Positions 24,185-59,138 of a DNA stretch of 64,000 nucleotides are shown here, piece after piece (position 1 is the stretch's first letter; the number at the start of each line of letters is the position of its first letter). The stretch is from Mobula hypostoma (Eukaryota): assembly GCF_963921235.1 (NCBI RefSeq), contig NC_086097.1:134914001-134978000 (forward strand), given 5' to 3'. The notes beneath the pieces are model-generated. The model saw only the letters and a program-made list of their open reading frames with translations. It did no database searches and was not told where the DNA came from. A program made the translations under genes and the position numbers.

Positions 24185-26993
24185 GTAAGAAACATTGAAA
24201 CATTCAACACTCTCTAAAGGTGGCAAAAATGCTGACAACGATGAAGACTACTTGTTTATGTCAATGCTCATACCTATAAAAACTTGAAAAATGGACAACT
24301 AACAAGTTGGTTCATAAAATCAAACCTTGTTTCCTTAGCTAATATGAAACTAATATCCATTTTTACTGTTTATCCAAAACTTTATTTGTAGAGTATGGAT
24401 TTTAGAATAGAAAGAATGACTGACGCAGGAAGAAAGGATGTCATTCAGATTCCTGGGTCCACATTGACCTTCAATGAGAAGTCTCAGTTCCTCCAATTTC
24501 CCTGTTGTTTCTAAAATTACAGCAAACAAGAGAGCTGGTCAGATATGACATTAAAACCTAACCTGACCCCAACACTACCATTGCCAATCAGAGCACACTC
24601 TGACCAGACCTAAACCGTTCCGAATCAACCTGGTCGATGACCAGTCCAACCCAATCATTAAACAATTCTGAAGTCTAGATTTATGGTCTACATCTATGGT
24701 CTTATAGTCTAATCCAACCTGACTGAGGCTAACTTAGATACAACCCAAACATGGCCGATCCAAAAGCAATCCAACCTGACCACAGTCAGTTGAGAACAGC
24801 CAGACTTGAAAACGGACAATTCAATCCTAACACAGCTAGGGTCAGTCCTGGCCCAACCTGGAACAAACTAGTGCATGCTTTGTTATCCAGTTTTCTTTTG
24901 GAAGATCCTTTTAATAATGCTTCTATCATTCATTCGAGCAGAATTGTCCCAAATCACACCAATTGATTGTGTAAAATAAATGTAATTATTTTATTCTCTG
25001 GTTGACCTGACAAATTTAGAAATAAAAATAGGGAAGGTTGGTCAGCAGGCAAAGGGAAAAAGTAAGTTAAAGCTTCAACAGAAGTCAGTCAGAGAAGCTG
25101 TCTCTATAACAGAGCTAGCCAGGACAAACCAGCGCACAACCCAGAAGAAGCGGCCATGTGATACAAGCAGAAGTTAGGGATCAAAGTTTTGATATGTTCA
25201 CCAAAAGTCAGCCAGTTGTGGTTCTGAACAAATACTTCCTAAGCAAGGCCTTGGGGGTGGTGATGGTGGGGTGAATACTAAGGAAGGCTTGGTGGGTGTG
25301 AGAGGTGGAGGCAGAGAATGAGAAGGGGAATGGTTTCAGTCAGATTTTTGTACGAGGTCCCTCTGTTGGTTGTACTGGGTTTTCTACATAGTACACAAGC
25401 CAGGGCAGTAGAATATGGAGAGAAAGACGTTGCCCATGTAGCAGGCTGCCCACTTCATGCAGCTGCCTCCAAAGGGATGGAAGAGACTAATAGAGTTCGG
25501 CACCAGCGGCGTCGCAGGAGTTGCCAGCCAGCATTGAAATCAATGTAAAACTGTCTTAGGGATTCAAGCTCCAGATTATTCCCTGGGATTTACTTCCGAA
25601 TCCTTCCCCATGAGTGGGTATAGCCGCAAGGCAGTAGAGGTTTGAGATCAGAGTTTTCCTTCTTCTAGATGAGCTGCCAACCATGGCAGACGTGCCCCAT
25701 CTGCCCAAAGCGACTGGTTTTAAGGTGCCAGTAACCCGCCTTTGCTCATTCTTCTGTCAGTAGGAGGAGCTCCTCTGGGCTTAGTAGCTAAGCCACATGT
25801 GAAGGCCCGGAGCTGGACTTGGGTGTCAGAGGCTATTTGAGATGCACACCATTGTGAGCATTTAATAGGTAGAGAGCTTATCTCCACTGCCAACCTTAAA
25901 GAACCTTAAGAAAGATTTTTGTATGACGGATATTAAAAGGAGGATTGAAAAATATGTTCAAGACTTGGAATTTGAAAACAATGTGGAGAATTCAGCAGAA
26001 AGGAAATGAACAGAGATAGATTCTCACTTCTCAGAACCTAGGACGGTGTTGAAACCAGTGGATAAGAAACTACTCCTGATTGAAGTTTGACTGAGTGCCT
26101 GCTTTTCTACAGAATTAGCAGGTATACTCTAAACAGTAACAAAATGAATGTAAACTAACATTACGTTGCTCCAGGAATAGGAATGAACAGTGAGAAGGAG
26201 ACCATTCAGCCCAGCAAAGCTTTTCTGGCTATCCAGACTCACACTACTTCCCCATTCTTGCTCCATGGTGGTGTGGGTTACAGCCAGTCAGGTGGACTTG
26301 TTTAAATATATTGAGGGCTTCTGCCTCCACCATTTCTTCAGGAAATGAGTTCCAGACCCTCCCTTGGCTCCCCTTTAAGTGCTTCACCAATCACTCTAAA
26401 TCTATGTCACCAATTATTAATATAATTTGCCACACAAGTAGTTAGGGTAGGAAGGAAGGCATATGTCATGATTGCCTTCAATGGTTGGGGCATTCAGTGT
26501 AGGAGTCAAGAGGTCATGGTACAGCTACAGTATGTAAAACCTTGCGCAGGCCAAATGCAAATTTCTTTTCTCAAAACTATTGATTTTACCTGATTGCCCG
26601 ATTAGCGGATGGATGTGGCAGATTCAGAAAGGATGCAGAAGTGGTTTAGTAGGATGTGACTCAGTTATGCCTGCCTCTTCGTTGGCTACGAAGAACAGTC
26701 CAAGTTCCAAGCCTTCCCCAGTATCGCTCCCCAACTCTTGCTCCGCTACAGTGATGACTGCATTGGTGCTGCTTCATGCACCCATGCTGAGCTCCTCAGT
26801 TTCAACAACTTTGCCTCTAACTTCTGCCCTGCCCTTAAATTCACCTGGTCCATTCCTGACACCTCCCTCCCCTTTCTTGATCTCCCTGTCTCCATCTCTG
26901 GAGACAAACTGTTGATCGACATATTTTATAAACCTACCAATTCCCACGCTTATCTTGACTATACCTCTTCCCACCCCATCTCCTGTAAAAATT

Positions 26994-27234
26994 TAACGCA
27001 AACAACAGGAATTCTGCAGATACTGGAAATTCAAGCAACATACATCAAGGTTGCTGGTGAACGCAGCAGGCCAAGCAGCATCTATAGGAAGAGGTGCAGT
27101 CGACGTTTCAGGATCCCTTACTCACTCTTCCTTCAGTTAGTCTTGACGAAGGGTCTCGGCCTGAAACGTCGACTGCACCTCTTCCTATAGATGCTGCTTG
27201 GCCTGCTGCGTTCACCAGCAACTTTGATGTATGT
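26994..27234. mobile_element. Mini Penelope fold-back insertion
   Basis: Arms 27037-27112 and 27160-27235. TSD TCCTGTAAAAATT at 26981-26993 and 27235-27247. Confidence 0.85.
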
Positions 27235-27682
27235 TCCTGTAAAAATTACTCAGTTCTTTCACCTCTGCCACACCTGTTCCCAGGTTGTGGCTTTCCTTTC
27301 CAGGATGTCAGAGATGTCCTCCTTTTACAAATAATGGGATTTCCTTTCCTCTACCACTGATACCGCCCTGACCCACATCTCCTCCATTTCCTGAACATCA
27401 ACGCTCACCCCCTCTTCTCATGGCCTTTGCAGTAACAGAGTTCTTACCACCCCATGAGCTCCACATCCAGCACATCAACCTCTGCAACTTCCACCATCTC
27501 CAGAGGGATCCTACCACTAAATATATCTTTACCTCCCTCACCCGCTATCCACCTTCCACACAGGTCATTCCTTCTGTGATTCCCTTGTCCTTTCGTCCCT
27601 CTCCACTAATCTCCCTCCCAGCACTTATCTCTGCAAGTGGCTTAAGTGCTACACCTGCCCATTCACCTCCTCCCTCGCCTCC

Positions 27683-27718
27683 AGTCCTGAAGAAGGTTCT
27701 CAGCCCGAAACGTCGACT
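27683..27718 (+). ncRNA. Minimal hammerhead ribozyme motif with complete core on the ANXA13 sense strand
   Basis: AGTC CTGAAGA AGGTTCTCAGCCC GAAA C GTC GACT. Confidence 0.65.
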
Positions 27719-29089
27719 GTTTCTTCGTTTCCATAGTTGCTGCCTGACCTGCTGAGTTCCTCCAGCATTTTGTGTGTGTTACCAGGATGTTGTCTGGATT
27801 AGAGGGCATGAGCTATAAGGAGAGCTTGGATGAAATTGGATTCTTTTCTCTGAAATTTCAGAGGCTGAGGGGAGACCTGAGAGAAAAATCATAAAACTAT
27901 GAGAGGCATAGAGAGGGTAGACAGTAGAATTTGTTTCTGAAGGTAGAAATGTCAAACACTAATGGGCAGAGCTTTAAGTTAAGGGGGAAAGTTTAAAGAA
28001 GTGTGGGGCAAGTTTTTTTTTTACGTAAGAGATGTAGTTGTGTGGAACGGCTGCTGGGGGTAGTGGAGGAAGCAAGTACAATGGGGACGTTTAAGAGCCC
28101 TGTAGATGGACACATGAATATGCAGGGAGGGAATGGAGGTATATCAGAATCCTTTATTATCTCCAAGTATGTGGACACATACAGGGAATTTGATGCCAGT
28201 TTCCCTGAGCTCTCCCGTACAGAATCAAAAAGCAAACAATAGTGCAAATAATCGTGAACTATATACGATGAGGTATACCTGTGTATGTACAGGTAGACTT
28301 GGTTTATAATAGACTAAAATTCAAGTGTTCATAAGACTGATGGCAAACAGAAAGAAACTGTTCTTGTACCTATTTGTCCTGGCGTACAGTGATCTAAAGC
28401 GCCTACCAGAAGGAAGGAGTTAGGTCAGGTGATGTCCAGGATGTGCGTCACGTACAGGCAAAAGGGATTTAGCATCATGTTCAGCATAGACATTATGGGC
28501 CAAAGGGCCTGTCCCTGCTCTGTGTACTCTATGCCCCATGTTCTAAACATACATTATATTACTCTAGGAGTAGGAATGTGTAGCAATGAGGCCATTCACC
28601 CCAGCGTGCCACTTCCCAGTTATTGCTCTAGGCTAGGGTCATGTGGATTAGAGTTCATCAGATATATATGTTTAAATGTGACCTGTGTTTCAACCTCCAT
28701 CGTTCTTTCAGGAACTGAGTTCCAGACCCTTCCCCACCCGCATATTGTGGGGTGAAAAAATTCCTCCTCAACTCCCCTTCAAGTCTTTCCAGCGATCACT
28801 TTGTTAAGATATGGATATCTCTGCTACAAGAAATAGATCATAGAGCCATACAGCAAAGAAATAGGCCCATCGGCCCACCAGTTCCATGCTGACCAACAAA
28901 CGACCAAATATAATGGCCCCTTTTACTAACATTTGGTGCTTCCCATTTATAGTGTCCAGGCCTTTCATAATCTCCACTTCAATTAAAATTCTCCTTCGCC
29001 TCCTCTGCACCAAGAAGAGATCCCAGTCTATTCAAGTTCTCCACAAAGCTAAGATTCAGCAGAATGGAAATTGTCACTGTAGATCTCCC

Positions 29090-29445
29090 CTTCACCCTTC
29101 CAGACCTGCAGGACCATGCCAGAATCAAGTGATTCTTGAAAGATCATGACCAATGCATCCGTCATCTCTTCAGCAACCTCTCTCAGGACTCTGGAATGTA
29201 GTCCGTCAGGCCCGGGTGACTTATCCACCATAAGGCCTTTTGAGTTTTCCTCTGTAATAACAATGGCACTCACTCCTGCTCCCTGACACTCACAGACCTC
29301 TGGCACACCACTACTAGTATCTTCCACAGTGAAGACAAATGCAAAGTACCCATTAAGTTCATCTGCCATTTATTTGCCCCTATTTCTACCTCATTAGCAC
29401 CATTTTCCAGTGGTCCAATATCAACTCTCATCTCCGTTTTACTTT
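29090..29445 (-). mobile_element. CR1 ORF2 internal fragment
   Basis: LNGYFAFVFTVED and [18 protein letters not shown] motifs. Confidence 0.8.
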
Positions 29446-29592
29446 TGTCCTGAGATGATATACAATACACATGGAAGTCTTTTCAATCCAATCTAAGTAG
29501 AGGGACCAGCTGCTCACTAAGGAATAAAAAATTTAAATAAGAATAAATTAGCAATGTCTTAGCTAACCTTATTGATAACTTTGCAAATGCAG

Positions 29593-29661
29593 GCCAACCG
29601 AGACGAGGGGTCTGAAGTCAATGAAGGCCTGGCTGAACAAGATGCCAAAAAACTGTTTGAG
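29593..29661 (+). CDS. ANXA13: Annexin A13 coding exon, 69 bp (ANRDEGSEVNEGLAEQDAKKLFE)
   Basis: atgcAG / GTaaat boundaries. Annexin linker and start of repeat III. Absent from the ORF track. Confidence 0.93.
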
Positions 29662-29763
29662 GTAAATAAAGCTTCTGTTTGACATAACTAAACCTCAAAA
29701 CCATGCAAGAACAAAAAGTTGCACTTTGCAATAACTTTTGAAACCAAAAATTTCTGTTTGCAG

Positions 29764-29865: not shown

Positions 29866-31123
29866 GTGAGTAACAATCACAACTTGTGTCATTTGGAAGC
29901 AAACATGAAGACTAGGAAATAGAAACATGAATAGGTTACCTGGTCCCTCTAGCCTTCCCCACTGTTCAATGTGGTCATGGCCAATCTATGCCGGCCTCAA
30001 CTCCTCTACTGCAATAATTTCTTTGCTTGTCTGTCCTGGATGTTTGAAAGCGAATATAGTCAAGGACGGTGAGATGTTCGCTCAAAGCCAATCGATTCAG
30101 GAGCTAAGATCAGAAAGTTTTGAACATTTCTCAGTAAAAGATTCTTGAACCTTTAACCTAATAACAAGAGGATATGAGGTCAAGGCAGGACATGCACATA
30201 ACTATCTTAGTCATTACTATGGCTGCATAAAGAGCGGAGTGAACCATAGTTGGCAACTGAGCCTCAGGAGTTGTATCCTGGTTCTTCATCATTCTCTACC
30301 CTAATGGCTAACAGATCATTAAAAATATTAAACACTTCTAAATAATATTACTTTTATTAAAACTACACCTAGTGTGTAAATCAATTACATGTGTTAATAT
30401 TACTTAAAATGAAGAGGGAAAAGGACACTGATTTTCAGTCACTGTTTTATTGGTCATCGATCCTATCTAATGGGACTGGACTGGATTCACCAGCTCTGGC
30501 TGGAGTGAAGCAGAAGGGTCAGGTGCCAAGCGTGTCTGGCCTCTCAATTCAGTACATTACCAAATTCCCTAGACCTAGTGCCATGTCTACCGGTGGAGTG
30601 CAACATCTGCTGTGTATTTCATAGCAACATAAGAAACAGATCATGAGATATGGGAGCAGAATTAGGCCATTTGGCCCATTGGGTCTGCTCTGCCATTTCA
30701 TCATGGCTGATCCATTTCACTCTCAGCCCCAGTCTCCTGCCTTCTCCCCGCGTCTCTTCATGACCTGACTAATCAAGAATCTATCAACCTCTGTCTTAAA
30801 TATACCCAATGACTTGGCTTCCACAGCCACCTGTGGCAACGAATTCCACAGAATTTGGAAATAGTATTCAGAAAAAGGAGCAAGAGTTGACCATCCATTC
30901 CATTGGAACCTGTTCCACCCTTCACCTAGATCACGGCTGATTTTCTGTCTCAGCACCAGAAATCTGTCAACCTGTGTTTTAAATGAACACAATCATTAAA
31001 TCACCACCACCTTCTTAGATAGAGGATTCCAAAGATTCAGCACTCTCTGTGGTGAAGTCATTTTTTCTCATCTCAGTCCTAAACAGCCAACCTTTTATTC
31101 TCAAACAATGCTCCTTCATCCTA

Positions 31124-31265
31124 GCAACGCACATAACACGCTTGAGGAACTCAGCAGGAAACAATCAGTCAATGTTTCGGGCCGATGCTGCACGACCTGC
31201 TGAGTTCCTCCAGCGTGTTGTGTGTGTTGCTTTGACCCTAGCATCTGCAGAGTATTTTGTGTTTA
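31124..31265. mobile_element. Decayed mini Penelope fold-back, with the tail on the right
   Basis: GAGGAACTCAGCAGG pairs with CCTGCTGAGTTCCTC, followed by the AGCATCTGCAGA tail. Sits inside a CR1 remnant. Confidence 0.6.
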
Positions 31266-31427
31266 CCCCTTGGTCCTAGACTCTTCAGCCAGGGAATACA
31301 TCTTCCTGCGTTCAGTCTCCCCTTGAGATACTTTGTAAGTTTTGACGAGATCTCCCCGGATGCGTTAACTGGTTGGCAGTCCCACAAGGAAGCTGGGCTG
31401 TTGCTGATTTCCCTCTTATTTACACAG

Positions 31428-31503: not shown

Positions 31504-34019
31504 GTAAATAGCTGAGTAATAATTTGTAATAAATCAAGACTGTTTTATTTTGAGGCCTCAAGTGTGGGATTAGTTTTAGTCCCTTTTAAAATCTTTCAAT
31601 AATATGGCACACGTTAGTGTCATACCCTCAGGTATGAGTATGTAGTATTGCACAAGTTACATCGGCATGGGGCCATTCAACCCTTCTATCCTATACACCA
31701 TGCTTTTGGAACAGGCTACTCTGTATCACAACCTCTTCTCGCTACTTTGGTTCTCTTGATCTAAAAACTTCTAAATATAAATCTATCAACTTGAAAATGG
31801 AAATGACAAAGGACTTCAACCTGAAATGTTAACCCTACTTCTCTCTCGACAGATGCTACCTGATCTTCTGAGTGTTTCCAACATGTCCTGTTGTCTTTTT
31901 TTAATCACGCTCTCTTTGTTCTGCTAAATTGGTCCTCTGGGCAGCTAAAAGTATTTCTATTATTGATGTAACAATGGGAAATTTCAAAGGGAGAAAAAGC
32001 AAAAAGGCTGCAGATGTTGGAAATGTTAAATAAATACCAGAAAATGCTGGGAAAAATCAATGAGTCAGGCAGTGTCAATGGAAAGAAAAACAGTCAACAT
32101 TTGAAGCCCTTTCATCAGAATGTAAGTTCAAAGGTCACTTGATGTGGTTATGCTTTCCTCACAATTTCAGAATAACTTATTCTTTTCCCTTTCAACAACA
32201 GACAAATGGTGGGGAATGTAGCACGATATACCAGAATTATCTGATTATAACTAGTCAATTCTCCGGAGCAATGAGAATGACAAGATGCATTGAAAACTTG
32301 GCAAATGTCCTCTTCCAGTTCACTTCCAGTGATGTTTGACCTGGGTAGAATTAACACTCCCTCAATGTGTTACAAAGAATTTACAGTAAAATACAGACCA
32401 TTCGTTACATGAACAAGGGGGAAGAGTTCAGTGACAGGGCGAGAAAAGGCAGGTGGGAAGGGACATCAGTTAACACTGCTCCTTTAAAACTCCAGGCGCC
32501 TGGGATCAATCCTCACCTTGGGTGCTGTCTGTGTGGAGTCTGCAGGTTCTCCCTGTTAACAAATGGATTCACTCCTCTGCTCCCTGGTTTCCTGCCCTGT
32601 TTGAAAAGCAACAAACAATCTGCATAACCACCTCAGCAGGTTTGTGGGTAGAAAAGAATTTTTGACTATGTCTCTATGACTTTTCGGGTTGAAACCATGC
32701 ACCAGGACTGAGAGTAAAAAGGGGTGATGGCCGATATAAAGAAGAGAGGGAAAGGGCTGTTACAGAGGCCAGTAGATGACTGGTGGACCAAGACTTCAGC
32801 ACTGGTAGCCTTTGTCTTCCTGATTATCACCTGCCAGCCTCAGTCTTCACCTTCACCCTCCAAACCTCTCATCTGTCTTTATTTTTCTTGCTTCCATCCA
32901 TTACCCACCTGCCTCCTGATTCCACCAGCCCCCTCCCCCCGCACCTCACTCCAATGACCTCTCATCGATTATCTCCTCAGTCCACCAATCACTTACTGGC
33001 CCCTGTATTACCATTCCCCCTTTCAATTTTATTCCGTCGCTTTCCCTGTCCAGGATTTCGATCAAAACATCAGCAATAACCTTTCCTCCCATAAATGCTG
33101 CTCAACCTGCTGAGTTCCTCCCGAATGTTTGCTGCTCATTATTCGCAGTCTCCTGTATCTGCATTGGAAAGGAATGTAGATTGCTAGTTTAGGTTCAAGT
33201 TTACTTGTCATTCAATCATACATGAATACAGCCAAATGAAATAGTATTCCTCTGGGGCCAAGGTGCAAAACGCATTACCAACAGCACACAGCACATAGAA
33301 CATATAGCACCTATGGTTCTGACAGCAGAAAAATACACGGTCACAAACTAAAATAATATAGCCCAAGTCCCAGAGTGGCATGGCCTGTAGATTGCTGGTG
33401 TGTGGGATGCTGTCTGCTCTAGCTTGTTCTTCCACTGACTGAACACTAAAGGGCAGCACTGATGGAGGGGCTATCTCCCAAACCACTATTGAATCCAGCA
33501 TGCCCACTGAGGCCTCTGCTCTCTCCCACACTGCCACATGGGCAGCAGCATCAGGCGACCCCGCGGCATGAGGACCTAGTCCACGCCGACACCAAGGCAA
33601 TGCAGCCCCATCGCCATCGGCCTCACAAGTGAATCAGTAAACCAGGCTTGCAATATTCTGCATTACCAACGCCCAATAGGGTCTTGCAATCACAAGAAAA
33701 ATGTCCAAGACAATCACTCGCACCATGCAACGCCTTGGCACAACAATGCTACACAACAAGTCCAGGCAACAACGCAACAATGGGACACAATAAGTCCAGC
33801 TCCATTGCTAGCAAGCAGCTCGCTGATGGTGTAGACCTGCAGTATTTGACGTTCTTACTATTCAGCAGTGTCTTGCCATCGTAAAAAAGACATAAAGGAC
33901 AACCGATTACACCTTTAATTAGACCTGGAAAGGCTGCTGCATCTGAGTGCACTGCCATCCAACCATAAATCTTATCGGTAGCTTAATTAACTACTGTACA
34001 TTGCCCCCAGTTGTCAATA

Positions 34020-35826: not shown

Positions 35827-37374
35827 TATATGGCTGGGAAGGGGAGAGCTGATAGTAATACAAGATGGGATTATTGTAGATTGGTACATGATGGCTAGCA
35901 TAGACATGATATGCTGAAGGGCCAGTTCCATGTTGTATAACGCTATATTGCTCTCAGACACTATGAAGCTTTGACGAGTTAGCATCAGACGCATTGCATC
36001 ACTTGCAGACTTGTATTCACAGCACATATTTGTACAATGTGGTCGTTGACATAAATGATGCATTTCACTCTATGTTTTGATGTACATGTGACAAATAAAT
36101 GTGATCTTTCATCTTTAAGCTCAGTGGGTAGACCTGTTGAGCTAATAGGATGTTCTTAAGCTCTTCATTTCACATAAATTTTCATAATAATAGCAAATGC
36201 CAATGGACAAAGTGTCTAATGGAAGTGTGAACTGGTAAGGTGCAGAGAAGGGTAATAATTCTAACACTTGGGGATTGGTAAAAGAGTAGATATTGAGGGA
36301 GAGGATGCAATAGATTGCTCTGATCTTCGGATGTAAATGTGCTAGAAGATTGACAGAATTCCCTTGGTGAAAGCTGCTGTTCCACCACCTGCACCATCTC
36401 TCAAGGAATCTTTGGGATTTATTGCAGGAAATTGGCTAGGCTCCTCCTGGAACTGCAGACAGATATGTTTTAGTAGAAAATTTACTGGATCATTCACTAG
36501 TGGAACAACGACCAGTTGAAGGTGCTGAAAGGCGTCAGTGGATCAGTAGGTAGCATTCCATCTTCTGAGCCCCAAGATCATGAATTTACTCCTGGGGTTC
36601 CACACTTCTTCATGTAGTCTGTGAGTTCTCTCTCTTTTGGTGCCTCCCTTTCAGCCGTTAAAGGGTGCAAGAAAGCTTTATGAGGACGCTACTGGGAATG
36701 GATGGTTTGAGTAAAAGGAGAGACTAGATGAGCTGTGGCTTTTTACCCTTGAGTGTGGAAGGAGGGTGACCTTAAGGAGGCTGAGAAGGTGGATAGTCAT
36801 ATTCTTTTCAGGGTACAGGAGGGCATATGTTTAAGATGAGGGGAGAAAGATTTAAAGGGACTCTGAGAGGCAACTTCAGATGGTGGGAGGTACATTAATG
36901 GAATGAGCTGCCAGAGGAAGTGGTTGAGGCAGCTATAATAACAACATTTCAAAGACATTTGGATAAGTACCGTTTATGGATAAGAAAAGTTTAGAGGAAT
37001 ATGGATCAAACACTGGCAAATGGGATTAGCTCTGGCAGCTTTGCCAGCATTCACATATTGGACTGTTTCTATTCCATATAACTCCAAGACTCTATGCGTC
37101 TATTTCCGTGGTGTGTGCCTCTCCCCCCCACCTCCCCCTCAGGCGTTCTCAAGACTCCATTTTCCCTCTGGGCTCTCCAACCATTCTCTCAGTCTCTCCT
37201 AGGGCTGGATGCCTGCCCACCCAGTCTCAGACCCCTGATTCACCTATTCTGCAGCAGCCCCTGTTCACCAAGCCAATTCTTCATTGTTGTCTATCCATAG
37301 AAACATTTCACCCCCTTGCATATCAAGAACCTGTCTACCTCAGTGTTAAAAATACTCAAAAACTCTGTTCCGTC

Positions 37375-38235: not shown

Positions 38236-39152
38236 TACCAATCATCATCTTCTCAAACTGGTTCTGCCATTTAGAAGAATCCATCATTGATATGTTGCAT
38301 ATTTACAACTCTTGTTCATTTGATTTCCTAAATGTACATTCTTTTGCCAGGTACCTTCTAAGATAAACTACCATCTGTCATTTCCACTGGACATCTTCCA
38401 TCCCCATGTTATCAGACTCCTGAATGGACATTTCAAATTCTAAAAGACGAAGTCTTAATCTCCTGATCTACCTGGCTCTAGCCATCGCATTTTATTTGTC
38501 TCCCTGCACTACATTTTCTCTGTAACTGTAACATTATATTCTGCATTCTGTTTTCCTTTAACAACCTTGATGTACTTATGGGTGGAATGACCTGCCTGGA
38601 TGACACACAGACAAAAGTTTTCCACTGTATCTTGGTTCATGTGACAATAATAAACGAATACCAGTACTGTTGAGGATAATAATTACTAAAACTCACAACC
38701 TCTGGAGAGAAATAAACTCATCCCTGCTCTTGACTTCCTTAGATAACTCCTTTAGTTTTAAACAGCAACCCCCTAATACTCGATTCTTCTATGTGAGGAA
38801 ATAGCCTCTCCACACCACCCTCGATACCAGGGCCCTCATCTTGTAACTTGTGCAGTCCAGTGCACCCAGTCCCGAAGAAAGGGCTCGGCCTAAAACGTCA
38901 ACTGTTTATTCATTTCCATAGATGCTGCCTGACCTGCTGAGTTCCTCCAGCATCTTGTGTGTGTAATCTTGTTTCCCAGAAATGAACATGCCAAATTACG
39001 TTTGCAATTAAATGTTTAATTATTATTAAGTTTTTGAATTATTCTTTTTCTACAGTATTTTTCTGTCTTCTCTTCTAACTTTTCAAATCCATCCTGTGAC
39101 TTGCGTAGAGCCCGTTCACCCACACTCGGCTTACTTTAATTTCCTTATGCAG

Positions 39153-42161: not shown

Positions 42162-43166
42162 AGGAAATCTACATGAATAAGTTGCCGTGTCAGTGGTTTG
42201 TCTGTTGAGTCATCGGCTCTGTTTAACATCTTTGCAAGTTAGAAATTTATTGATGTAACGTAGAAATAATGTACTTATTTTTCCCAGAATTACCACAACA
42301 AACTATAACACTGACCCTTTGCTCATCCAACTAGTCAGTGTGAAATCTCCCAATGTCACGGCATCAAGTGTTTGATTTTGTTCCTATGCTCTGTGCATAA
42401 GGCTCCTCTTCGCATCGATGCCCGATCCTATGATTGTGTTATAAGCATCTGTAGGACTTGTTTAATACGTGTGGGAAATATTTATTTGAAGTCCCATCTT
42501 TGTGCAAACACGTGGATCTGATAAAGAAACATTTTGTCACAATAGTTGCAGAGATGTGGTGAGGGATAGGGGGTACAGGAGGGAGGCCAGATGGGAACAT
42601 TTTCGGCATTCCACCTCACCACCGTTTTGAGAGTGAAACTTGTTTGTAGTAAATGGGTTTACTATTATCACATGTACCAAAGAACAGTGAACAAACTTGT
42701 CTTTCATACCAGTCATACAGATAAATTCATTGCAACAGTGTATTGAGGTCGTACAAGGCAAAACAAACAAGGTAGAGAATCCCTTTATTTCTTGGGAATG
42801 TGTTCACACAGGGGCAGGGGAAAACTATTCAGCTTCTTGAAGCCCACTTGCCTTCCAACTTGATTGTTGCTAATATAATGGTCCCACACATGTCTAAGCA
42901 AACATTATACCAAATGTATTTTTAAAAAAAGAACAGGACAGCGCAGTGGTGAAATTAACAAGAGTCCCCTCCAGGTTCTTGGGTGTCTGTAACAGGCTCT
43001 ATTTTTTGCATGTGTCTACTAACCACTGAATTCCTTTTAGCTGGAACTAACCTTACCTCTGGCCATGGAGAACAACAGTCCTTATACACAGTGGATACAG
43101 TGTACAATGGAGGCATAAATTAAAGCAGCATGAAATCAGCCCTTCTGCCTAACACATTCATACTGA

Positions 43167-43390
43167 ACACGAGGAAATCTGCAGATGCTGGAAATTCAAG
43201 CAACACACACAAAAAGTGCTGCTGAACGCAGCAGGCCAGGCTGCATCTATAGGAAGAGGTACAGTCAAGGTTTTGGGCCGAGACCCTTCGTCAGGACGAA
43301 GGAAGGTCTTGGCCCGAAACGTCAACTGTACCTCTTCCTATGGATGCGGCCTGGCCTGCCGCGTTCACCAGCATTTTTGTGTGTGTGTTA
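43167..43390. mobile_element. Mini Penelope fold-back insertion in a CR1 3' end
   Basis: Near-complete palindrome at 43202-43389. TSD ATTCATACTGA at 43156-43166 and 43392-43402. Confidence 0.85.
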
Positions 43391-43402
43391 TATTCATACT
43401 GA

Positions 43403-44410: not shown

Positions 44411-47400
44411 GAATGGTGAGGGACGGAGCACTACCTGTGTGGTTGTACGGACTCAATAAGTTGGCCTGGAGAAACATACACTCCGCTAAACACACAAAAT
44501 CTTGAGCAAAACGCTCAAAAAATACAGGAGGAACTCAGCAGGTCAGGCAGCATCTATGGAGGAAAATGGACAGTCAACATCTTAGGCCGAGGCCCTTCCT
44601 TAGCACACCCATGGATGCGACAGCAGGAAGCTAAAAACTGTTTTGCCTGTGGGCCACCTCTATCAGTTCTCGAGGCCAGGTTGTGGAGATGACGAGGAGG
44701 TTGGTGGAGATGGACAGTAATGTCTACTGGCTGTGGGAGTTTGGGAGTGAGAAGGATGGGATCTTGGGTAGTCATTTCAAGGTTTGAACAGGGAAGGAAA
44801 GGCATTTGGAGACACGGGTCTTCATTAGGGTGTGGGGAGAGGGAGGGCTCTCGAGGAGCATGAGGTTGTATGCTTGGCAGTGAAAAGTTTGAGAGGTCAG
44901 TGGGTATTTTTGTACCTCACTCTGGAGAAAAAAAAAACCTTTTTCTGCATAACTTGATAACTTCGCCTCCACCATTTCACCCCCAAATCATTTTTGAGAT
45001 CAGTGATGCCAAAGTTAAAGGGGACAGTTTGCAGTCTACAGAGACCATCGTACTGTGTAATTCCTGATATGGAGGCTTCTTTACAGGGTTGCACTCTCTG
45101 GAATTTTGAAGCTTAAAGAATGATTTGATTGATGATATTAAGGGGAATTGCAATGAGGGTAATGCAAATAGGTGGCATTTTTACTGACTTGGATTTTGAA
45201 TGGCGTAATATTCAAAATTCAAAGCCAGAGCTCTCAGGACAAAAGCAGTGGAGGGGAAAATCTGAAGCCAGCTCCACATGTCTCTGTCAGACAATTATTT
45301 TCAAATCTGAGCTTGACAGAACTGTGCTAGCCAAAGATGATAAGGGATAAAGGGAAAGGTGATTATATGGAGTTATCTCATCATTTTGCCGCAATGTCAG
45401 TCAATGGCAGAAAAGGCTCAATTGTCTGAACAGACTTCTCCCATTTCATTCTTCCCTGGAAATAATCAACAAGTCAGTCAGCTTCTGTAGAGAAAGAGAG
45501 ATGTAGTCATTGCCATTGAAAGTCTAAGTGTATTTCTCTCTTTACAGGTACTGTCTGATCGACTGAGTATTTTCAGATTCTCCTCTTTTTATTTCATCTG
45601 CATTTTTTTTTTGGCTTCTGTGACTCCGTGTTTACTGGCCAAAAGAGCTCAGATAGAAATAGCTCTCAAAACAGGGTTGGGATATCAGTTGGGTTTGACA
45701 ATCTTTTCCGTCTAATACTGCATATAAATAATTCATAGTCTGGGCAGATTGGAGGTGCCTTTCCTTCACTATTATGATCATATGTTAATATTGTGTAATT
45801 GAGAGGTGCAGCACAGAAACACACCCTTCGGCCAATCGTTTGCACAATCAAGCACACATTCATAGTAATCCTACTTTTTAAAAATGTTCCTGACATTCTC
45901 ATCATGAGCAGCACAGATATGGTGAATGCACGCAATCTTTTTTCCAAGGTAAGGGAATCAGAAATTAGAGGGCATAGGTTTAAGAATGATTTACTGAGGG
46001 ACATAAGAGTGGAAAGTTGTGTTGTTTTTGTTGCTAAGTGCTTGCTTATGAGCCAGATACTAGCTGCAAGTTAGATTGAATCGGGACCCCAAGGCACCAG
46101 GAAAGAAATTGGTTTTCGAACCATTTTTAAATGCCGCACAGTGACACCCTTTGAGCTTCTCAATCCGTTGCTATTTGTGTCTTTCATCCAATTTAAATCC
46201 TGCCCGGCTGAAACAAAAATCACACAAGCTAACTCCCATCCTCCTCCCCCCATTGACTCCCAATGGACTGCCAGCCGCCTTGCGAAAGTAGCTAACGTAA
46301 TTGAGGACCCCTCCCACATTGGTCATTCTCTCGTCTCCTCTCTCCCGTTGGGAGGAAATTACAAAAGTTTGAGACTCAAGGACTCAAGACAGCTTCTGTG
46401 CCACTGGCATCAGACTCTTGAACAGACCTCTCATCCGCTAAACAATGAACTCGTGATCTTTCAACCCACGTCAGATTCAGATTCATAAGTACAGTGACAT
46501 GTGGTGTTTGCATTAACAACCAACACAATCTGAGGACTTCATCATGGCCCTTGCACTTTGTTTACTAGCACTGAACTTCTCTGTAATTGCTACACTGCAT
46601 TCTGCATTTTGTTTCTTTTTTTACTATCTTAACTAAATATGTATGCCATGATCTGTCCAGATCGCATGCAAAACAATGATGTTTTACTGTGTCCACTGTG
46701 TAGCATTAATAAGCCAACAGCAGAAATGCCCAGATGTGGAGTCAAAACAAATATATAGAAAATGGATGAAATAGTTCTCTAAAAAAAAACAATGTGTCAG
46801 GTTGAATAAAATAAAGAATCACCCCTTTTAATTCACTAAGTAGCATAGCACGGGACGTGATCTCTACCAGACCTTTACTGAGTCACCCTCTGCTGGAGGG
46901 AATGGGTTTACCACAAAGTTATTCAGCCCCGGGAAAGCCAGCCAACTGTTGTTGTTGACAATCACATTGTGACGTGGATCAGAGCCAAAGGACTCTTTAG
47001 TGACCAACGGTCTATATGTGGGTCAATTGCAGTACAGGGTACAGAGTGACTGATGGTATTTTCCATGATGTCTCCTCTGCTCGGCTGGGCTGTGGCCAAG
47101 ATGAACAGTTTCCTGGCACTGGGACCACACAAACACACTTCCACCCCAAAGAACAAGTGGTACAATATTTAACCAGCGAGCGACTGGTTCGGGAAGATAG
47201 TCTAGCTGTTAGAAATAAATCAGAAGTAACAGTGATATCTCAGAAGAAAATGGCCTCCTCCTGCTCCTTTGCTTCTGTTTGGAAATCATATGATGCCACT
47301 ATTATTTGCCGAAGAGCAGGAAATCCTACCAGTTGTAATGGCTCTTCAGCTGCGTTACCCAAAGCTCTGCTCTGTTGACATGTGCCAACACGTATTGCTA

Positions 47401-48130: not shown

Positions 48131-48466
48131 CTCTGGCACTCCAGCAGAGGTGCCTCCATTCGGATGAGATTATTTAAAGGGATAACATTCAAGATGCTTC
48201 CAGAGCCATGGAGTAATACAACACGGAAACAGGACCTTTGACCTAGTCTGACCGTGCTAACCAAGATCCCGTTCTAAACTAGTCCCGTTTACTCATGTTT
48301 GGTCCATGTTCCTCAAATGCTTCAGTGGTCTGACCCTTTCCTGTGCATGTACATCCAAACGCATTTTGTTTGTTTAATGGTACCCAGCCCTCCCAGATTA
48401 CCTGGTAGCTTGTTCCATAAATGCAGCACCCTCTTGCCCCCTAAATCCCTTTGAAACTTTGCATCC

Positions 48467-48868
48467 CACACAAAATGCTGGAGGAACTCAGCCGGCCAGG
48501 CAGCATCTATGGAAAAGAGTAGAGTCGACGTTTCAGGCCGAGACCCTTCATCAGGGACTGGAAAGAAGATGAGAAGTCAGAGAAAGAGGGTGGGGGGAGG
48601 GGAGGAAGAAGTACAAAGTGACAGGTGATCAGGGAAGCCAGGAGAGGGGTAAGGGGTGAAGTAAAGAGCCTGGAAGTTGGTTGGAGAAAGAGATAAAGGG
48701 CTGGAGAAGGGGGAGATCTGATAGGAGAGGGGAGAAGAACATGGAAGAAAAGGAAGGAGGAAGAGCACCAGAGGGCGGTGATAGGCAGGTAAGGAAATAA
48801 TATGAGATAGGGAAATGGGAATGGGGAATGGTGAATTGGGGGGCAATTACTGGAAGTTCGGGGAAAAA
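48467..48868 (-). mobile_element. Penelope pLTR fragment with hammerhead motif at 48523-48559
   Basis: Minus strand AGTCC CTGATGA AGGGTCTCGGCCT GAAA C GTC GACT. Pyrimidine-rich pLTR body like 9190-9575. Confidence 0.8.
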
Positions 48869-49625: not shown

Positions 49626-49635
49626 CTATTAATAG
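49626..49635. promoter_or_regulatory. MEF2 consensus site in unique DNA upstream of KLHL38
   Basis: CTATTAATAG fits YTA(W)4TAR. E-box-containing CACATGTG about 30 bp upstream. Confidence 0.35.
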
Positions 49636-51643
49636 TCTCGGAATGTAAGTAATGTTTTGTGTCTGAGAGCTGATCTAAATACAAGTTTCAAAGCAAGGCT
49701 GTCTACTTATTAACAAATCTGGAAACATTAATTCAGGGAAGTTTTACTGAACCCACCACAGAAAGGCCTTTACATTCTTCTGCTGCGTTTGTACCTTTGA
49801 GCACCACTGTCAGACAACATCAAACCAGCAAAGAAGGTGTAAAGAGAAAAATTCAATGCTATTAACCCTGGAAGGGACTCTGGACATCATTAACCCTGGA
49901 AGTCAGGTAATTTAATAATCTTCAAGAAATGTGTAAGCACGTCAAAACTCGCTCCGTATGTCTTTCTTCAAGCTCGTAACCTTTTGATCTTTGCCAATTC
50001 GTTTGAAAATAACGTTGACTCACCGATGTTATTGGGGAATAGGATTCTTTTATGTAGGAGGTAAGATTCCTTGACTAATTGTTCCTTTCACATGAGGTGA
50101 TGTGTTTGTACCTTCATCCTTTCCAACGAACAAAGTATCCTTCTTTGTTCAAGTTCTGATTTCCCTAGGGAATTAGGGTGCCCCTTGTAGTGTTTTGGGA
50201 AGGAATAGGTTGCGGGGTAAGGAACAGGGTTGAAAATTGGGGTGGGACACGTTTGGGCAACTGTTATTGAAATGTGATAATGATTCCTTCACATTCTATG
50301 TCTCAGCAGTGCAATCTTGAGTATTTTCTCTTTGTTGCTGGCATTGAGGGGCTTTACTGGGACCCAGTGTCTACGTGGTGTTCGTAAGCTTGGAGAAGAA
50401 AAGATGAATGAGCCTACTATCAGGTCAATTTGACCTCGTGCCTGAAAGGCACTAATTTCTGAAGTGTCACTTAGTTACTGGGCAACAGATATAACTGACC
50501 TAAATGCCATTACCATTTGGGGTGCCTCTCAGTCAGATGTTCAAGTGAAGGTGTAGAGGGATATGGCCCAAACGTGGACAAACGGGACCAGTTATGATGG
50601 GCATCTTGGGTGGTATGGACCAGCTGAGTCAAAGGACCCGTTTCTATAACCAGGAAATCATTTCACCTCATTGGACAAACAGAAAAATAATTTAGCTCTG
50701 GAACTAGGAGATACGATAACCAACCCAGTCAAATTGTTCAAGTTGAATGAGGTACACTGGCTGATCAGAAACCAGAACTCAACACACCAAACCAGTTAAT
50801 TTCTTCCCATGGTTTTGAACACTTTTTCGTTCTTCTCTGGGACCAGTGACAACTAGAAGGTAAATCATTTCAATTCTGGGGATTGGATGCCCCTTGAAAC
50901 AATGAAATTTATTGCCCATCCCCAATTACCTCTGGGGTCATATTGGTTGATCTGGGGTCACATATTGGCCAGACAAGGTAAAGACAGCAGATACTCACCT
51001 CTGAAGTACATTAGTTTCCTTGATGATCCAGCAACTTCATGGTTGTCACTGCTGAAATGTACTTTGTTTTATTGGTTCAATTTAAATTTACCGACTGCTG
51101 TAATTGGGATTTAAACTCAATGGTGTCACCCCAGGCTGCTGGAGCAATAGCTGTTGTGCCCCAGTTTCCAGTGTAATAACTTTGCAAGAGAAGTGTATGT
51201 TTTTTTTGGGGGGGGTGAGTGTTTCATGCCTGAGTTTCCTTGACAACTGGAGGCTCTCCTGGCATTAACACATGCTACTAGCACTCACCATGTCTAGATT
51301 GGAGCAGAATATCTAACCTGGACACGTCTCACCACAGAGGTTAAAGCTACCCTTCAAGTAACCCTACATCCCTTCCTTTTCCAGCAAAGCCTTGTAAATG
51401 TTACTCCTTCAGTCATCTCCCATTTGAAAATCCACACAGAATCTGTTTTCATTCTCCTTTCAGGCAAAGTGTTCTAGATTACAACTTAGTGCATAGTGGT
51501 GACTTAGCACATCCCACAATTTTTTTTGTTAATTATGTTTTTTCTGCTAATTATCTTTCACAAATAGGCTATAAAATTCAAGACTTCAGCCAACTAAGCC
51601 AAACAGCATCAAATATTTGTAAAACAAGTGAAACTCTCCAGAG

Positions 51644-51722
51644 CAGGGGTTCCCAACCTTTTTGATGCCATGGACCCCTACCATTAACCAGGGGTCTGTG
51701 GATCCCAGGTTAGGAACCCCTG
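51644..51722. mobile_element. 79-bp hAT (Charlie-like) MITE
   Basis: TIRs CAGGGGTTCCCAACCT / AGGTTAGGAACCCCTG. Flanks CTCCAGAG / ATCGAGAA resemble a decayed 8-bp TSD. Confidence 0.75.
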
Positions 51723-51920
51723 ATCGAGAATGTTTTGCTATCCATAATCAACCCACATCCTTGAACTTTGTTGTTGGTGTGGATTCATTTAGAGAATGTT
51801 CACATTATTAATTCTTCCTGAAGCAAGCTGGAAACAAATGGATAAAGTACGCCATAAAATTTCTGCTGAAAAAGATCTGGGTTACCTTTCATGTCTCTTT
51901 TTTTTTTGTTGTTTTACAGC

Positions 51921-53276
51921 ATGAATGAACCTACAGTTCTTCACAGCTCATTTCAGTTCCAAGAAATGGACCTGTCTCACCAATTATTGAAACAGCTGAA
52001 TACACTACGTCATGAAGAGACCTTGACTGATGTAATACTCTGTGCTGGGGGGAAAGAACTGCCTTGCCATCGAAGTGTCCTGGCGTCCAGTAGTCCCTAC
52101 TTCTGGGCTATGTTTTGTCACAACTTCAGAGAGAGTTTCCTCAGGCGGATCCACCTGTTGGGGATCGATGGGGACATTCTGGCTCTGCTTGTGGATTATG
52201 TGTATACAGGGGAGATTACCATAAATGCGGCAAACGTTTTCTATTTGATGGAAGCGGCTGCCGTTTACCAATACCCCAACGTGCTTGAGGCTTGCTCGAC
52301 ATACTTGCAAAGTCAGTTAACCGCTGACAACTGCCTTGGCATGGTAAGGCTTGCACAAGTGTTCAACTGCAGGAGCCTGGAGAGACGGGCGAAGAAAATG
52401 GCTCTGGAGCACTTCCTGGAGGTGGCAACTACGGAGGAGCTGAAGGAGCTCTCCTGCACTGAGCTGGCGGGCTACCTCGGGGACGATGAACTCCGCGCCG
52501 AAGAAGAGCAGGTATTTGACACCCTGTCCGCCTGGATCAGTCACGACCCGAAGACCCGGCAGCACCATGCACATGAGCTCCTCGAGAAGGTGCGGCTCCA
52601 GTATGTCCACCCCACTTACCTCTTTCACTTCATCGCCAACAACCCCTTCATCCAAGGTTCACCCGTTTGCAGGGGCATCTTGGAGTCAGCCCTCAGGCTG
52701 CTATTTTCTTTGAGCCCTGCAAACAGCCCCAACAGTACACCTTTGATGCACTTACCACGTAGGTGTGCTTCCCAGGAGTTCCTTGTCACCATTGGAGGTA
52801 GGAAGAGCAACCAAGAGACCACGAGAGAGGTTTTCTTGTATAATTATATGGACCAGCAATGGCGCGCCCTCTCAAAGCTCCCTGTACATCTTTATAAAGC
52901 TTCTTGCGTTTGCTTACACAGGAACGTGTACGTCCTTGGAGGACTGATCATTAGTAACAAGAAGAGAACTGCGAGTGCAAGAGTTTATAGTTTCTCCTTT
53001 AAGATGAACCACTGGCGGACCGAGAAAGACATGCCTTTTCCCTGTTATTCCCATCAGACCCTCGCGCACGTGAATTATATTTTCTCTCTGGGAGGAATCG
53101 GGCCCAGTCAAGAGATACTGGACACACTGCACAGGTATGACAGCGTTTTCGGAATCTGGCAAAGAATGGCCCCGATGCCCGTTGCTGTGCTGCACCCAGC
53201 TACCGCTGCTGTCAATCAACGCCTCTACGTTTTTGGTGGGGAAGATGTGGGCCGGAATGCTGCTCGCCTGATACAG
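51921..53276 (+). CDS. KLHL38: Kelch-like protein 38, first coding exon (BTB, BACK and first Kelch repeats; 452 codons)
   Basis: ttttacAG|C|ATG start and donor CAG|GTatgt. Diagnostic KLHL38 strings LP..LYKAS...LHR..YVLGG and MPV.VLHPA.A...QRLY.FGGED...N..RLIQ. Follows ANXA13 as in human. Confidence 0.95.
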
Positions 53277-55402
53277 GTATGTCTGTCAGATCTGTTCTCC
53301 ATTGGTTGATTGTGTTCGGAGAAGGGGAGGTGACACAACACACATTTAACCATGTTTAAGTGTAAGGTACGTGGATAGGAAGGTTTTAGAGGAACTTGGG
53401 CCAAATCTGGGTGGATGGGACTAGCTTTGAAGGGATCTTGGTAGGGATGGACCAGGGGCCTGTTTCTGTGGTGTACGACCCTAAGTCTCTACAATAAGTT
53501 GGTGACGCCTTGTGCCATCTGACTATCCCATGGTGTTTAGCCTCCTCCACAAACTTGAGGACATCCAAAACTCTGCTCACTACTTGCCCTCATTCCCCAA
53601 CCCCCACCACCACCCCATGCCCTAATCATCCCACAAGACCATGCACACTGGCTCACACTAGCTCCTAGTTTAGGCCTCAGTTTAAAAATTCTTATCATTT
53701 TGACTTTTAAAAACCCTCCACCCCCTCTTACCACCCACCATGACCTCTGAGCTTTCTGCACTCTTCCAATTTTGCGGCTGATTATCCCCAGATTCAGTCA
53801 CCACTGGCAGCCATACCTTTACCTGTCGAAGTCCCTAGCTCTGGAACTCCCTCCCTGGACCTCCCCACCTTTCACTCCAGCCTGCTCTTTGCCAAGTTTT
53901 TGGTACCTGCTTTTAAGTTCCCCGGATGAGCTCAGTATTAAACTTTGCTAATGTTCGCGTAAATAGGCTGGGAAAAGTTTGGCCATTCTAAAAACACAAT
54001 AGTTGTTACTGTTATGCTTTTGATTTATTAGAAGTCATTAAACGCACAGAATTCTGGCAGCCCTAAATCCAGCTACTCAATAGCGCAGCTAATCAGACAG
54101 TACAAAGCAAAAACATCAAAAAGTTTTATGCAAGGTTAGCTCTTGTGAGGCTGAAATTGCTCTATTAATCTGATTTTTTTTGTGCTATAAGCAAGTTAGT
54201 GTTGCTGGATGACCACCAGCAAGGATTTAGGATGACTACGCCAGGATGATTTGGCCTGGATTGAATACAAGCTCTCAGAAGTGGCTAAAGTAGTGGAAAA
54301 CATTAATCGCCGTCTCTCTTAATGATTGTTACCTTTGAAGATTAATGTCTAACCAGGCTGTTAAACCAAGACGCAATCCATTAACTGAACATTAGCAGAT
54401 GGTGTCATCAAACCCAGGACACAAGACAGCAGAGTAAAATAATCAATAAATAATGTGATCGTAAATGATTGAGATCAAGCGTTCAAGGTGATAAATCCTG
54501 AGCAACGTTTCGTTCAGATATTGTGAATAGCCGACAGTTTTCTGAAAAAAAACGGTAAATAATTTATCTGCTGTGAATTAAGTGACTCAAACTGCAAATA
54601 ATTGAAAGGCAAACTCACCACAATATCCCCATAATACTGCTCACTGATCAAAGGATAACTGAAACTGTTACATCCATTCAGGTACATGATATAGCTCAAG
54701 TTGCAGACAGCCCTCCAGTATTTCTTGGACTTCCACTGTACACAGTGGCCACTCAGCCCACTGTGGACTTATCAATTAGACCCAATCTCCGTTAAGCCCT
54801 ACACATTCCCCATTTTATGGTATTTCATCCAATTTCCCCTTTGAAACTTCCAGTAAACCTGCTTCCTTCACCCTTTCAGGTAGCATATCCCACGTTCACT
54901 CACAACATCAACAATAATGCTTTTCCTCATGCCTTGGGAGTTTTCCTACTTACGTTGCCCTGGTTACTCATCTAGAAACCAGATCTTTATTTAACCTATC
55001 GAAACATTGCATAATATTGAACACCCCAATTAAATTTCACATTGGCCTTCTCTGTACAAACCTCAACCGCAGTTTCTGCACCTTATCGAAGTTCCTCATC
55101 CCTTGGATAAATCTCCATTACACTGCCTCAAGTTCCTAAAGTCATTGCCTAAATCTGGACACAGATATAATTCTGTAAGTTATACAGTAATTCAGCATGA
55201 AGAAAGTACCTTTGCCCCAACCCATCCATACTGACCAAGATGCCAATCTAAGCTAGACACATTTTCCCAACTTGGGTCCACATTCCTTACATCTTTCCTG
55301 TCCATGTTCTCGTCCAGATGTCTTTTAGATGTTGTTATTGTACAAGGTCAATCACTTCCTCTGTCACCCCCTTCCATATACATACCAGCCTCTGCATGAA
55401 GA

Positions 55403-55603
55403 GCAAACACGCCATTGTCTGCAGATGCTGGAAATCTGAGCAACACACACAAAGTGCTGGAGGAACTCAGTAGGCCAGGCAGCATCTACGGAAAAGAGTA
55501 AATGGTCAGCGTTTCAGTTCATCAGTCCTGATGAAGACCCTCGGCCCAAAATGTTGACAGCCTGACCTGATGAGCTCCTCCAGCATTTTGTGTGTGTTGC
55601 TCA
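55403..55603. mobile_element. Mini Penelope fold-back insertion in a CR1 remnant
   Basis: GAGCAACACACACAAAGTGCTGGAGGA pairs with TCCTCCAGCATTTTGTGTGTGTTGCTC. TSD GCATGAAGA at 55394-55402 and 55604-55612. Decayed CTGATGA core. Confidence 0.8.
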
Positions 55604-56759
55604 GCATGAAGAAGTTGCCTCTCAGGTCTTTTCCCCCCTCACCTTAAACCCATGTCCTTGAATTTCTGATTTCCTTTCCCTGAGGGGAATCTCAGGGTTC
55701 AGTCAATGATTTCGCCACACTGTAATATCCTCCTTATTTTTATTTATTCATTCAGGGGACCAGATGTTGCCAGCAACGCCAGCATTTGCTGTCCATCCCT
55801 AAGTAGTCCTCAGCAAGGAGACATCCATTTTGATCATCCATCTGGATGGGTCAGCAGCACAAGGAGCTGGTGGACAATAGTAAACCAATGGAGTTAAAAC
55901 AATCACGATCATTATTACTAATGCTAGCATTTTAACCAGATTTATTTAATGAATCATCACATTCTCCATCTGTCTATGAGTAACCACTGCAGCAGGAAAG
56001 AAATGGGCCACAGACAGAGGTAAATTATTCTTACATAGAACCAAAAGCACGAAATAAAACTAATTATCAAATTCCCCAGCAATCAAGCTCTTGCCTTTTG
56101 ACACACCGAATACCAACTAGATCAGTAACTTAAGCTCAGTGTTTTCAGCTCAGCTGTGTTGGTGTTAGTACTGCACCCCAAGATTCCTCTCACACTGACC
56201 TGTCCCACCCATCTCCTCATCTCTCCGTTCCTCAAACATTTCTCCAACTACCCCTTAAAAAAAAATCACCTCAACTCCTCCCGGAGAGAGTGAGCCCCAA
56301 ATTCTTATCACTCACTGGGTAAAAGTGTTTCTCTTCAATTCCCAACTGGATGTAATTGTGACTCTCGTATAGTCGTGACTCCATGTTTTTGGATTTCCCT
56401 GTTAGTGGAAGCATTGGCACAGAGGTCCTTGCTCGGCCATACGTGCCAAGTATGTGACAACCCCCCCCCCAACCCCCAACCTTTGGTGTTGACTGTGTGT
56501 GGAGACTGCAGATTGTGACTGTATGGGTTTCGTCCCACATCCCACAGACATGCAGGTAAATTATCCCTAGTGTTGATTGGTGGGGAGGAAAGTCAGGAGG
56601 AGGTTAATGGGCATGAGAGAGAATGAGCTGCAGAGTTACAGGGAAGTAAGAGGGGGAGTGGGATTGACAAAATTGTACTTTTAGGAGCCGGCGTAGAGGC
56701 AATTAACTAAATACCCTCACTCTGTGTCAGATTAACCCTGTGACAATCAAATAATCAAT

Positions 56760-59133: not shown

Positions 59134-59138
<5 letters not shown>

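Follow-up and report, generated by a model that had tools for sequence, protein, structure and literature searches.

Penelope-like elements (PLEs) typically leave insertions in which their terminal repeat (pLTR) occurs in inverted orientation, a tail extends from one side only, and a target-site duplication (TSD) of 8-10 bp is present (Arkhipova et al. 2013, PMC3846280; Craig et al. 2021, PMC8557442). As described there, complex insertions of endonuclease-positive PLEs have outward-facing pLTR ends, a 30-40-bp tail at one end, a TSD around the whole unit, strong 5' truncation, and an open reading frame (ORF) that starts in the pLTR and tail, with part or all of the ORF retained between the arms. 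Here we report on insertions of this layout in a 64,000-nucleotide stretch of the genome of the ray Mobula hypostoma (assembly GCF_963921235.1, contig NC_086097.1, positions 134,914,001 to 134,978,000, forward strand), hereafter the window, among them short fold-backs of 140-240 bases that we call minis. The minis are a new instance of a known PLE insertion pattern, differing from the published complex insertions in that their arms are cut to 44-122 nt; across the insertions of the window TSDs reach 16 bp, compared with 8-10 bp in rotifer PLEs. Very probably they are independent, dead-on-arrival integration by-products of Neptune-type PLEs in which both arms were truncated.

Three further systems invite comparison. 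In vitro, the Poseidon protein of Anolis carolinensis, a predicted dimer, cleaves both strands of the target and extends them; it starts reverse transcription (RT) at two sites that bound the tail and uses an uncleaved RNA template (Frangieh et al. 2024, PMC11167929). In the anole element, as here, a hammerhead ribozyme motif adjoins the ORF start, and the uncleaved template compares with arms that mostly run past the predicted hammerhead cut; unlike our element, it belongs to a clade other than Neptune, and the accessible text of that study neither explains the inverted arms nor analyses their junctions. Pairs of minimal hammerheads on opposite strands, 100-700 bp apart, occur in Schistosoma mansoni (Cervera and De la Pena 2014, PMC4209133); like the minis, they are short, dispersed, inverted PLE ends with minimal type I hammerheads and have been read as truncated PLEs, but the organism belongs to a different phylum and the accessible text gives them a single sentence, without junction or TSD analysis. 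Non-LTR retrozymes consist of head-to-tail units with a hammerhead in each (Li et al., bioRxiv 10.64898/2026.07.22.740005), and those of animals resemble the minis in being non-coding and pLTR-derived, with a type I hammerhead and a similar size range (bioRxiv 10.64898/2026.07.22.740005; PMC11722881). Unlike retrozymes, the minis have unshared junctions and broken hammerheads; all four are single inverted pairs with no intact core and, as far as their sequence can tell, they fall outside the retrozyme definition.

An initial annotation of the window had placed fold-back insertions of one design at five loci, and all five were recovered there: four minis, at 27, 31, 43 and 55 kb, and a long form at 8177-9575, each composed of two outward-facing PLE 3' ends (Table 1). 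Self-comparison of the window showed that every fold-back is built from one sequence of about 100 nt, present twice. Inverted repeats of at least 40 nt were absent from three Markov shuffles of the window, and the RNA folds of the 27-, 43- and 55-kb copies (z-scores of -22.0, -16.6 and -8.0) were equalled in stability by none of 200 shuffles each, so that folding lies far beyond chance; the 43- and 55-kb copies are near-perfect hairpins with loops of 2-4 nt. A lopsided fold-back at 60 kb adds to the earlier list. We count positions from the last base of the untailed arm (position 0 or 'site 1', which is 9575 in the 8-kb copy); on this scale -91 is the first base of the hammerhead core, the cut is predicted after -64, an ATG is found at -43, and the tail reaches +39. 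The tail is confined to one arm, as first described, and measures 36-44 nt across copies instead of the roughly 35 nt then given; in the 31-kb copy it sits on the right arm. The tailed arm is clearly the shorter in four of six copies (8, 27, 31 and 60 kb) and lies within 5 nt of its partner in the other two (43 and 55 kb).

Exact duplications of 16, 13, 11 and 9 bp flank the 8-, 27-, 43- and 55-kb copies, respectively. With one mismatch allowed, those at 43 and 55 kb both reach 13 bp, and the decayed pair at 31 kb matches at 10 of 13 positions; among 20,000 flank pairs drawn at random, 8 gave matches of at least 9 bp. Because every target is a repeat in its own right, unoccupied paralogous (not orthologous) sites could serve to check the duplications. 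The 27-kb target lies in the RT frame of an older PLE, and SCKN, encoded by the duplicated word, is single in all three protein homologues compared; about 10 host bases seem to be missing directly after the second copy of the word. Once the element and one TSD copy are taken out, three sites align with no extra word to paralogues at 55182-55310 (43-kb site), 36820-36953 (55-kb site) and 13538-13675 (31-kb site). For the 8-kb target, and for the junctions considered below, we used contigs from four of 24 public runs (X1, X5, X11 and X9, the last only guessed to be RNA), compared at 85% likeness with the arm at 8100-8670: 200 contigs in X1, 172 in X11 and 19 in X9 depart at 8176 into sequence like that from 9592 onward. 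In the unoccupied paralogues of all five targets the duplicated word occurs once. The early interpretation of these words as TSDs thus stands on the evidence of paralogous empty sites.

All five internal junctions differ (Table 1), the 60-kb copy is also unlike the rest, and the identical junctions at many loci that had been proposed as the mark of a replicating family did not appear in the window; junctions in old copies were placed by alignment, partly by eye. In a tree of 17 arms, those of the 8-, 27- and 43-kb copies split from all others with a support of 1.0, and the 31- and 55-kb arms fall among long and single-arm copies of a second subfamily, identity across the two subfamilies being 61-75%. 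Because minis occur in two subfamilies, each with long copies, they are not a clade, and the single family first envisaged gives way to two (8/27/43 kb and 31/55 kb) in which minis are polyphyletic with long copies.

Between the two arms of the 27-kb copy 1 of 75 positions differs; their mutual identity of 99% compares with 93-95% to the arms of the 8-kb copy, in which the changes they share are absent. Identity between the two 8-kb arms is 98%; the arms of the 43-kb (82%) and 55-kb (81%) copies are no closer mutually than to other copies. The suggestion that both arms of a copy derive from one template therefore holds for the 27-kb copy, where variants are common to both arms, and for the 8-kb copy, the 43- and 55-kb copies being too decayed to tell. 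These identities fit one source element per insertion, as would be expected of any PLE insertion, with arm-to-arm conversion as an alternative. The two variants first noted in the 27-kb arms were confirmed there, and were not among the 40 of 156 contig variants listed.

Arms overlap at the junction by at least 2 nt in four of the five copies, the 8-kb copy having 1 nt, against null rates of 0.042 for at least 2 nt, 0.009 for at least 3 nt, and 0.003 for at least 5 nt with offsets. Six of the eight mini arm ends lie within -74 to -96, inside the hammerhead, and a truncation hotspot at the hammerhead is possible; such clustering is, however, also favoured by two biases, the divergence of the subfamilies upstream of -95 and the limit below which short arms escape detection. 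A pile-up of alignment ends near -95 was rejected as proof of a hotspot, since the loose ends at 8309 show low agreement (0.38-0.45) and look like what lies upstream in the other subfamily.

A motif scan gave four hammerhead matches in the window, one of them in a mini (27139-27174, where U replaces C3 of the core); in the 31-, 43- and 55-kb minis the core is cut or mutated, so that none of the four carries an intact hammerhead, and a search of Rfam at gathering score gave no match. The original picture of pLTR ends around a hammerhead is accordingly right as to the outward-facing ends, while the hammerhead itself is cut, mutated or folded back in every mini. Helix prediction, in which two of three stem II pairs were scored, has the helices forming in an isolated 45-nt motif, with probability near zero in both the 27-kb hairpin and the isolated arm. 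Only the tailed arm at 31 kb and the stub at 60 kb fall short of the predicted cut at -64, all other arms extending past it, and hammerhead cleavage was rejected as the cause of truncation, no arm ending there.

Evidence for the identity of the parent element comes from the long copies, in which alone the endonuclease region is found; the minis are linked to PLEs through pLTR homology. These copies combine a C-terminal GIY-YIG domain upstream of the pLTR, a CX4CX2C motif, a minimal type I hammerhead motif, and an inverted truncated copy with one-sided tail and TSD. The GIY-YIG match to Pfam (E = 1.6e-4, 22.3 bits) is slightly below the 22.6 cut-off. Among candidate proteins, 43 of 60 pass 1e-10, and those closest to 8787-9191 are from Mobula hypostoma (P0002, 96% over the full query), Hypanus sabinus (up to 89%) and Rhincodon typus (67%). 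The endonuclease region is also carried by annotated ray or skate gene isoforms (P0005, P0006, P0009 and P0031), which may be annotation artefacts or exonised PLE pieces. In the 8-kb arm, reading from the ATG at -43 meets no stop codon as far as the end of the tail, and an ORF start inside the pLTR and tail has been reported for rotifer PLEs (PMC3846280). A CX2-5CxxC motif ahead of the endonuclease is characteristic of Neptune and Nematis PLEs (PMC8557442), and vertebrate PLE groups are described as Neptune and Poseidon. Our element thus appears to be an endonuclease-positive PLE of Neptune type, with the motif and the vertebrate host as grounds for choosing Neptune over Nematis. The window holds at least eight further PLE ends, and 136,053 X1 contig records align on one 571-nt arm, which indicates a very abundant PLE family. 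PLE ends for which no partner arm was found are situated at 6786-6882, 31804-31870, 33084-33163, 38868-38964, 44502-44606, 48453-48757 and 59068-59205; some single-arm ends are tailed, and most stop in or near the hammerhead. In the older PLE that hosts the 27-kb mini, the zinc-finger region runs straight into the hammerhead (the deletion ends near -99), and the endonuclease is missing.

In twin priming of L1 elements, two primers from opposite target strands produce an inversion with microhomology at the inner junction and a TSD, the second primer landing upstream so that the two parts do not overlap. Here, by contrast, both starts are 3'-terminal, with the result that one sequence appears in two copies. 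We give about even chances to a two-primer route of formation, in which the GIY-YIG endonuclease would first nick both target strands 9-16 bp apart; the basis for this step is the TSDs seen here and the two-strand cleavage in vitro for the anole PLE. Each nick would then prime reverse transcription on the element RNA, one at site 1 and the other 36-44 nt further 3', at the tail end, and if both starts acted in one event the outcome would be two outward-facing ends with a tail on one only. Both cDNAs would be copied upstream and stop early, at observed positions that often lie in or near the structured hammerhead, which may be the cause of the stops. By analogy with L1, the cDNA ends could finally pair via 1-5 nt of microhomology, as the observed overlaps suggest, and fill-in would fix the fold-back. 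Together with the 60- and 8-kb copies the minis form a continuum, of which they are the shortest members. The first of two alternatives offered initially, that these are products of Penelope integration by early truncation and inversion, draws support from the differing junctions, the polyphyly and the TSDs.

The shorter tailed arm fits a second primer that has to displace the first cDNA, six copies making this only a lead. A fuller version, which we hold tentatively and consider more apt to fail than to hold, has the tail-end primer displacing the first cDNA and so usually stopping earlier; the uncleaved hammerhead would be both a stall site and an annealing hotspot, its short inverted motifs allowing cDNAs of the same polarity to pair, with a dimeric protein priming both cDNAs from the two nicks on one RNA.

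Several points weigh against reading the minis as by-products of two-primer integration. The in-vitro work on two starts concerns an element of the Poseidon clade, not Neptune, and the same layout has been ascribed elsewhere to self-priming (PMC3846280) or to endonuclease resolution (PMC8557442). The fold-back points of the 43- and 55-kb minis, which belong to different subfamilies, nearly coincide (-89 to -96), a more stereotyped arrangement than random truncation would give. Only five or six copies are readable, and their unique junctions leave room for a rarer mini family. Finally, the contig test described below had no positive control: the window's own 27-kb junction was not among the joints listed, the contigs are short, and X1 joints are under-counted.

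The self-priming account also makes the minis by-products: one cDNA folds back on a short palindrome and primes its own copying, perhaps on antisense RNA, after which the endonuclease trims one end and leaves the tail on the other. We consider it unlikely, though it deserves attention. Such a process was proposed for rotifer PLEs from palindromes at inverted junctions (PMC3846280), and the tail has been attributed to endonuclease resolution (PMC8557442). It would also explain arm identity directly, and the near-perfect 43- and 55-kb hairpins with their small loops are what it would produce. Against it are the two start sites that bound the tail in vitro (PMC11167929). In addition, a cDNA started at the tail and folding back should yield the longer arm on the tailed side, contrary to the arm lengths given above, which with six copies are a lead only.

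Long inverted repeats are prone to deletion, and the minis might be longer fold-backs that lost their middles later, by deletion between the inverted arms. This we judge improbable. It is favoured by internal deletions, which are present in arms of the 8-, 31- and 55-kb copies and, at 27683, in the host element, and the microhomology fits it too, but the 27-kb copy, with so few differences between its arms, is young and yet already short, and short single-arm copies, which have no partner, terminate in the same region.

A self-propagating, non-autonomous hairpin RNA family, retrozyme- or SINE-like and copied from mini master loci by PLE proteins, was the second alternative offered initially, and is very unlikely. 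In its favour, four copies share a similar size and design, two apexes (43 and 55 kb) nearly coincide, PLE ends suffice for mobilisation in trans in a rotifer (PMC3846280), and animal retrozymes derive from pLTRs and are present in the one chondrichthyan sampled in the accessible accounts. The differing junctions, the polyphyly of the minis and the broken hammerheads speak against it, as does the inverted rather than head-to-tail arrangement of the arms. That the hammerhead helices have almost no probability in the 27-kb hairpin is kept only as a weak point, since the isolated arm does not fold the hammerhead either.

A mini junction common in the family should top the lists of joints in the contigs. 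Among the 15 of 94 joints listed (14 skips and one that goes back) none changes strand, with at most three contigs per run and a depth of at most 56; among the 12 of 150 listed joints with letters between, depth is at most 195, versus a summed depth of about 10 million over the pLTR end in X1. No well-supported recurring junction thus appears among the joints listed, which is a weak argument against a hairpin family, and pattern scans of genome, viral and metagenome contigs gave no match in each. A depth about 2-3-fold higher over the last 100 nt of the pLTR than upstream of it was not used, because summed depth is no copy number and other subfamilies cross-match. As a separate observation, joints that go back 35-37 nt from 8309 (reference 8273-8309) occur in three contigs of X1 and one each of X5 and X11; these would correspond to a head-to-tail copy of the exact minimal hammerhead, and a dimeric ribozyme or retrozyme seed elsewhere is possible.

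That the minis are miniature inverted-repeat transposable element (MITE)-like non-autonomous DNA transposons is hardly credible, for although they are short and non-coding with inverted arms and a flanking duplication, one arm is not terminal and the tail lies outside it, TSD length varies (9, 11, 13 and 16 bp), and the arms are PLE 3' ends, joined in long copies to the GIY-YIG ORF, with interiors not common to the copies. The idea that the 'Chompy' hairpins of Repbase/Dfam are Penelope-derived was not confirmed; the one paper found lists Chompy among DNA transposons.

Table 1. Fold-back insertions, their duplications and related PLE features (window coordinates; negative numbers are pLTR positions relative to site 1)
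Feature	Position	Strand	Remarks
8-kb TSD	8161-8176 and 9576-9591		16 bp; 3 nt at untailed end and 2 nt at tailed end common to element
8-kb copy, tail	8177-8213	-	beyond untailed-arm end; extends short frame opened by ATG at -43
8-kb copy, inverted tailed arm	8214-8787	-	pLTR and end of endonuclease region, to about -600; deletion of about 27 nt near 8672; intact minimal hammerhead 8274-8309
8-kb copy, 3' remnant of PLE ORF	8787-9191	+	CX4CX2C motif (at 8787) and GIY-YIG endonuclease, Neptune type
8-kb copy, untailed pLTR	9192-9575	+	arm from about -788; hammerhead motif 9480-9515, one change next to GAAA
Older decayed PLE hosting 27-kb mini	26648-27780	+	RT motif, thumb, zinc finger, deletion, own pLTR end 27683-27780
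27-kb TSD	26981-26993 and 27235-27247		13 bp; encodes SCKN
27-kb mini, tailed arm	26994-27112	-	tail 26994-27037; pLTR positions 0 to -74
27-kb mini, untailed arm	27113-27234	+	-122 to 0; imperfect 5-nt homology at junction
31-kb TSD (decayed)	31112-31124 and 31267-31279		
31-kb decayed mini	31125-31266		two arms, 2-nt overlap
31-kb mini, untailed arm	31125-31185	-	0 to -78, internal deletion
31-kb mini, tailed arm	31184-31266	+	-44 to tail end
43-kb TSD	43156-43166 and 43392-43402		
43-kb mini	43167-43389		tail 43167-43202; tailed arm to 43297 (-94); untailed arm 43295-43389 (from -89); overlap GAC, 3 nt
55-kb TSD	55394-55402 and 55604-55612		
55-kb mini	55403-55603		tail 55403-55440; tailed arm to 55525 (-91, 10-nt deletion)
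55-kb mini, untailed arm	from 55523		from -96, deletion of about 20 nt; overlap CAG, 3 nt
60-kb lopsided fold-back	60291-60926		untailed arm of about 600 nt, 60291-60885 (minus); tail-only stub 60904-60924 (plus); TSD not established

Other repeats share the window. A different fold-back of about 730 bp at 15220-15950 has inverted arms that are 87% identical over the self-alignment, ends TGT...ACA, a 4-bp duplication (CAAG) on either side and no hammerhead match, and may be akin to an inverted LTR or Ginger-like element. In a 1.8-kb fold-back at about 20880-22680 the arms, several hundred bases long, match at 80-96%; it has a 36-bp tandem array at its centre and the right end TGTGACA. A decayed 190-bp fold-back (70%) at 23046-23236 matches neither the PLE ends studied nor the hammerhead motif. 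A long dispersed repeat, probably LINE remnants, is present at 13431-14761 and 57022-58338 in opposite orientation, the two copies being 76-81% alike.

The literature searched held no paper on such minis in rays or sharks, although supplements or Repbase or Dfam entries may cover them; nor, by title and abstract, did it hold a paper applying twin priming to PLE inversions, most subscription literature lying outside the search. What may be new is the clustering of junctions in or near the hammerhead and the usually shorter tailed arm.

As a class the minis are ordinary; the fitting annotation is truncated PLE insertion, and labels such as MITE, retrozyme or hairpin RNA gene should be avoided. 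Their value is mechanistic, bearing on how PLEs make inverted ends and a one-sided tail. In a young short copy such as that at 27 kb, the two priming sites, the two truncation points and the joint all fall within 240 bases; counting such copies across the genome could therefore discriminate between the two-primer and self-priming models with no bench work. Should the displacement of one cDNA by the other prove true, arm lengths and junction positions in the abundant ray copies would provide a population-scale test of PLE integration.

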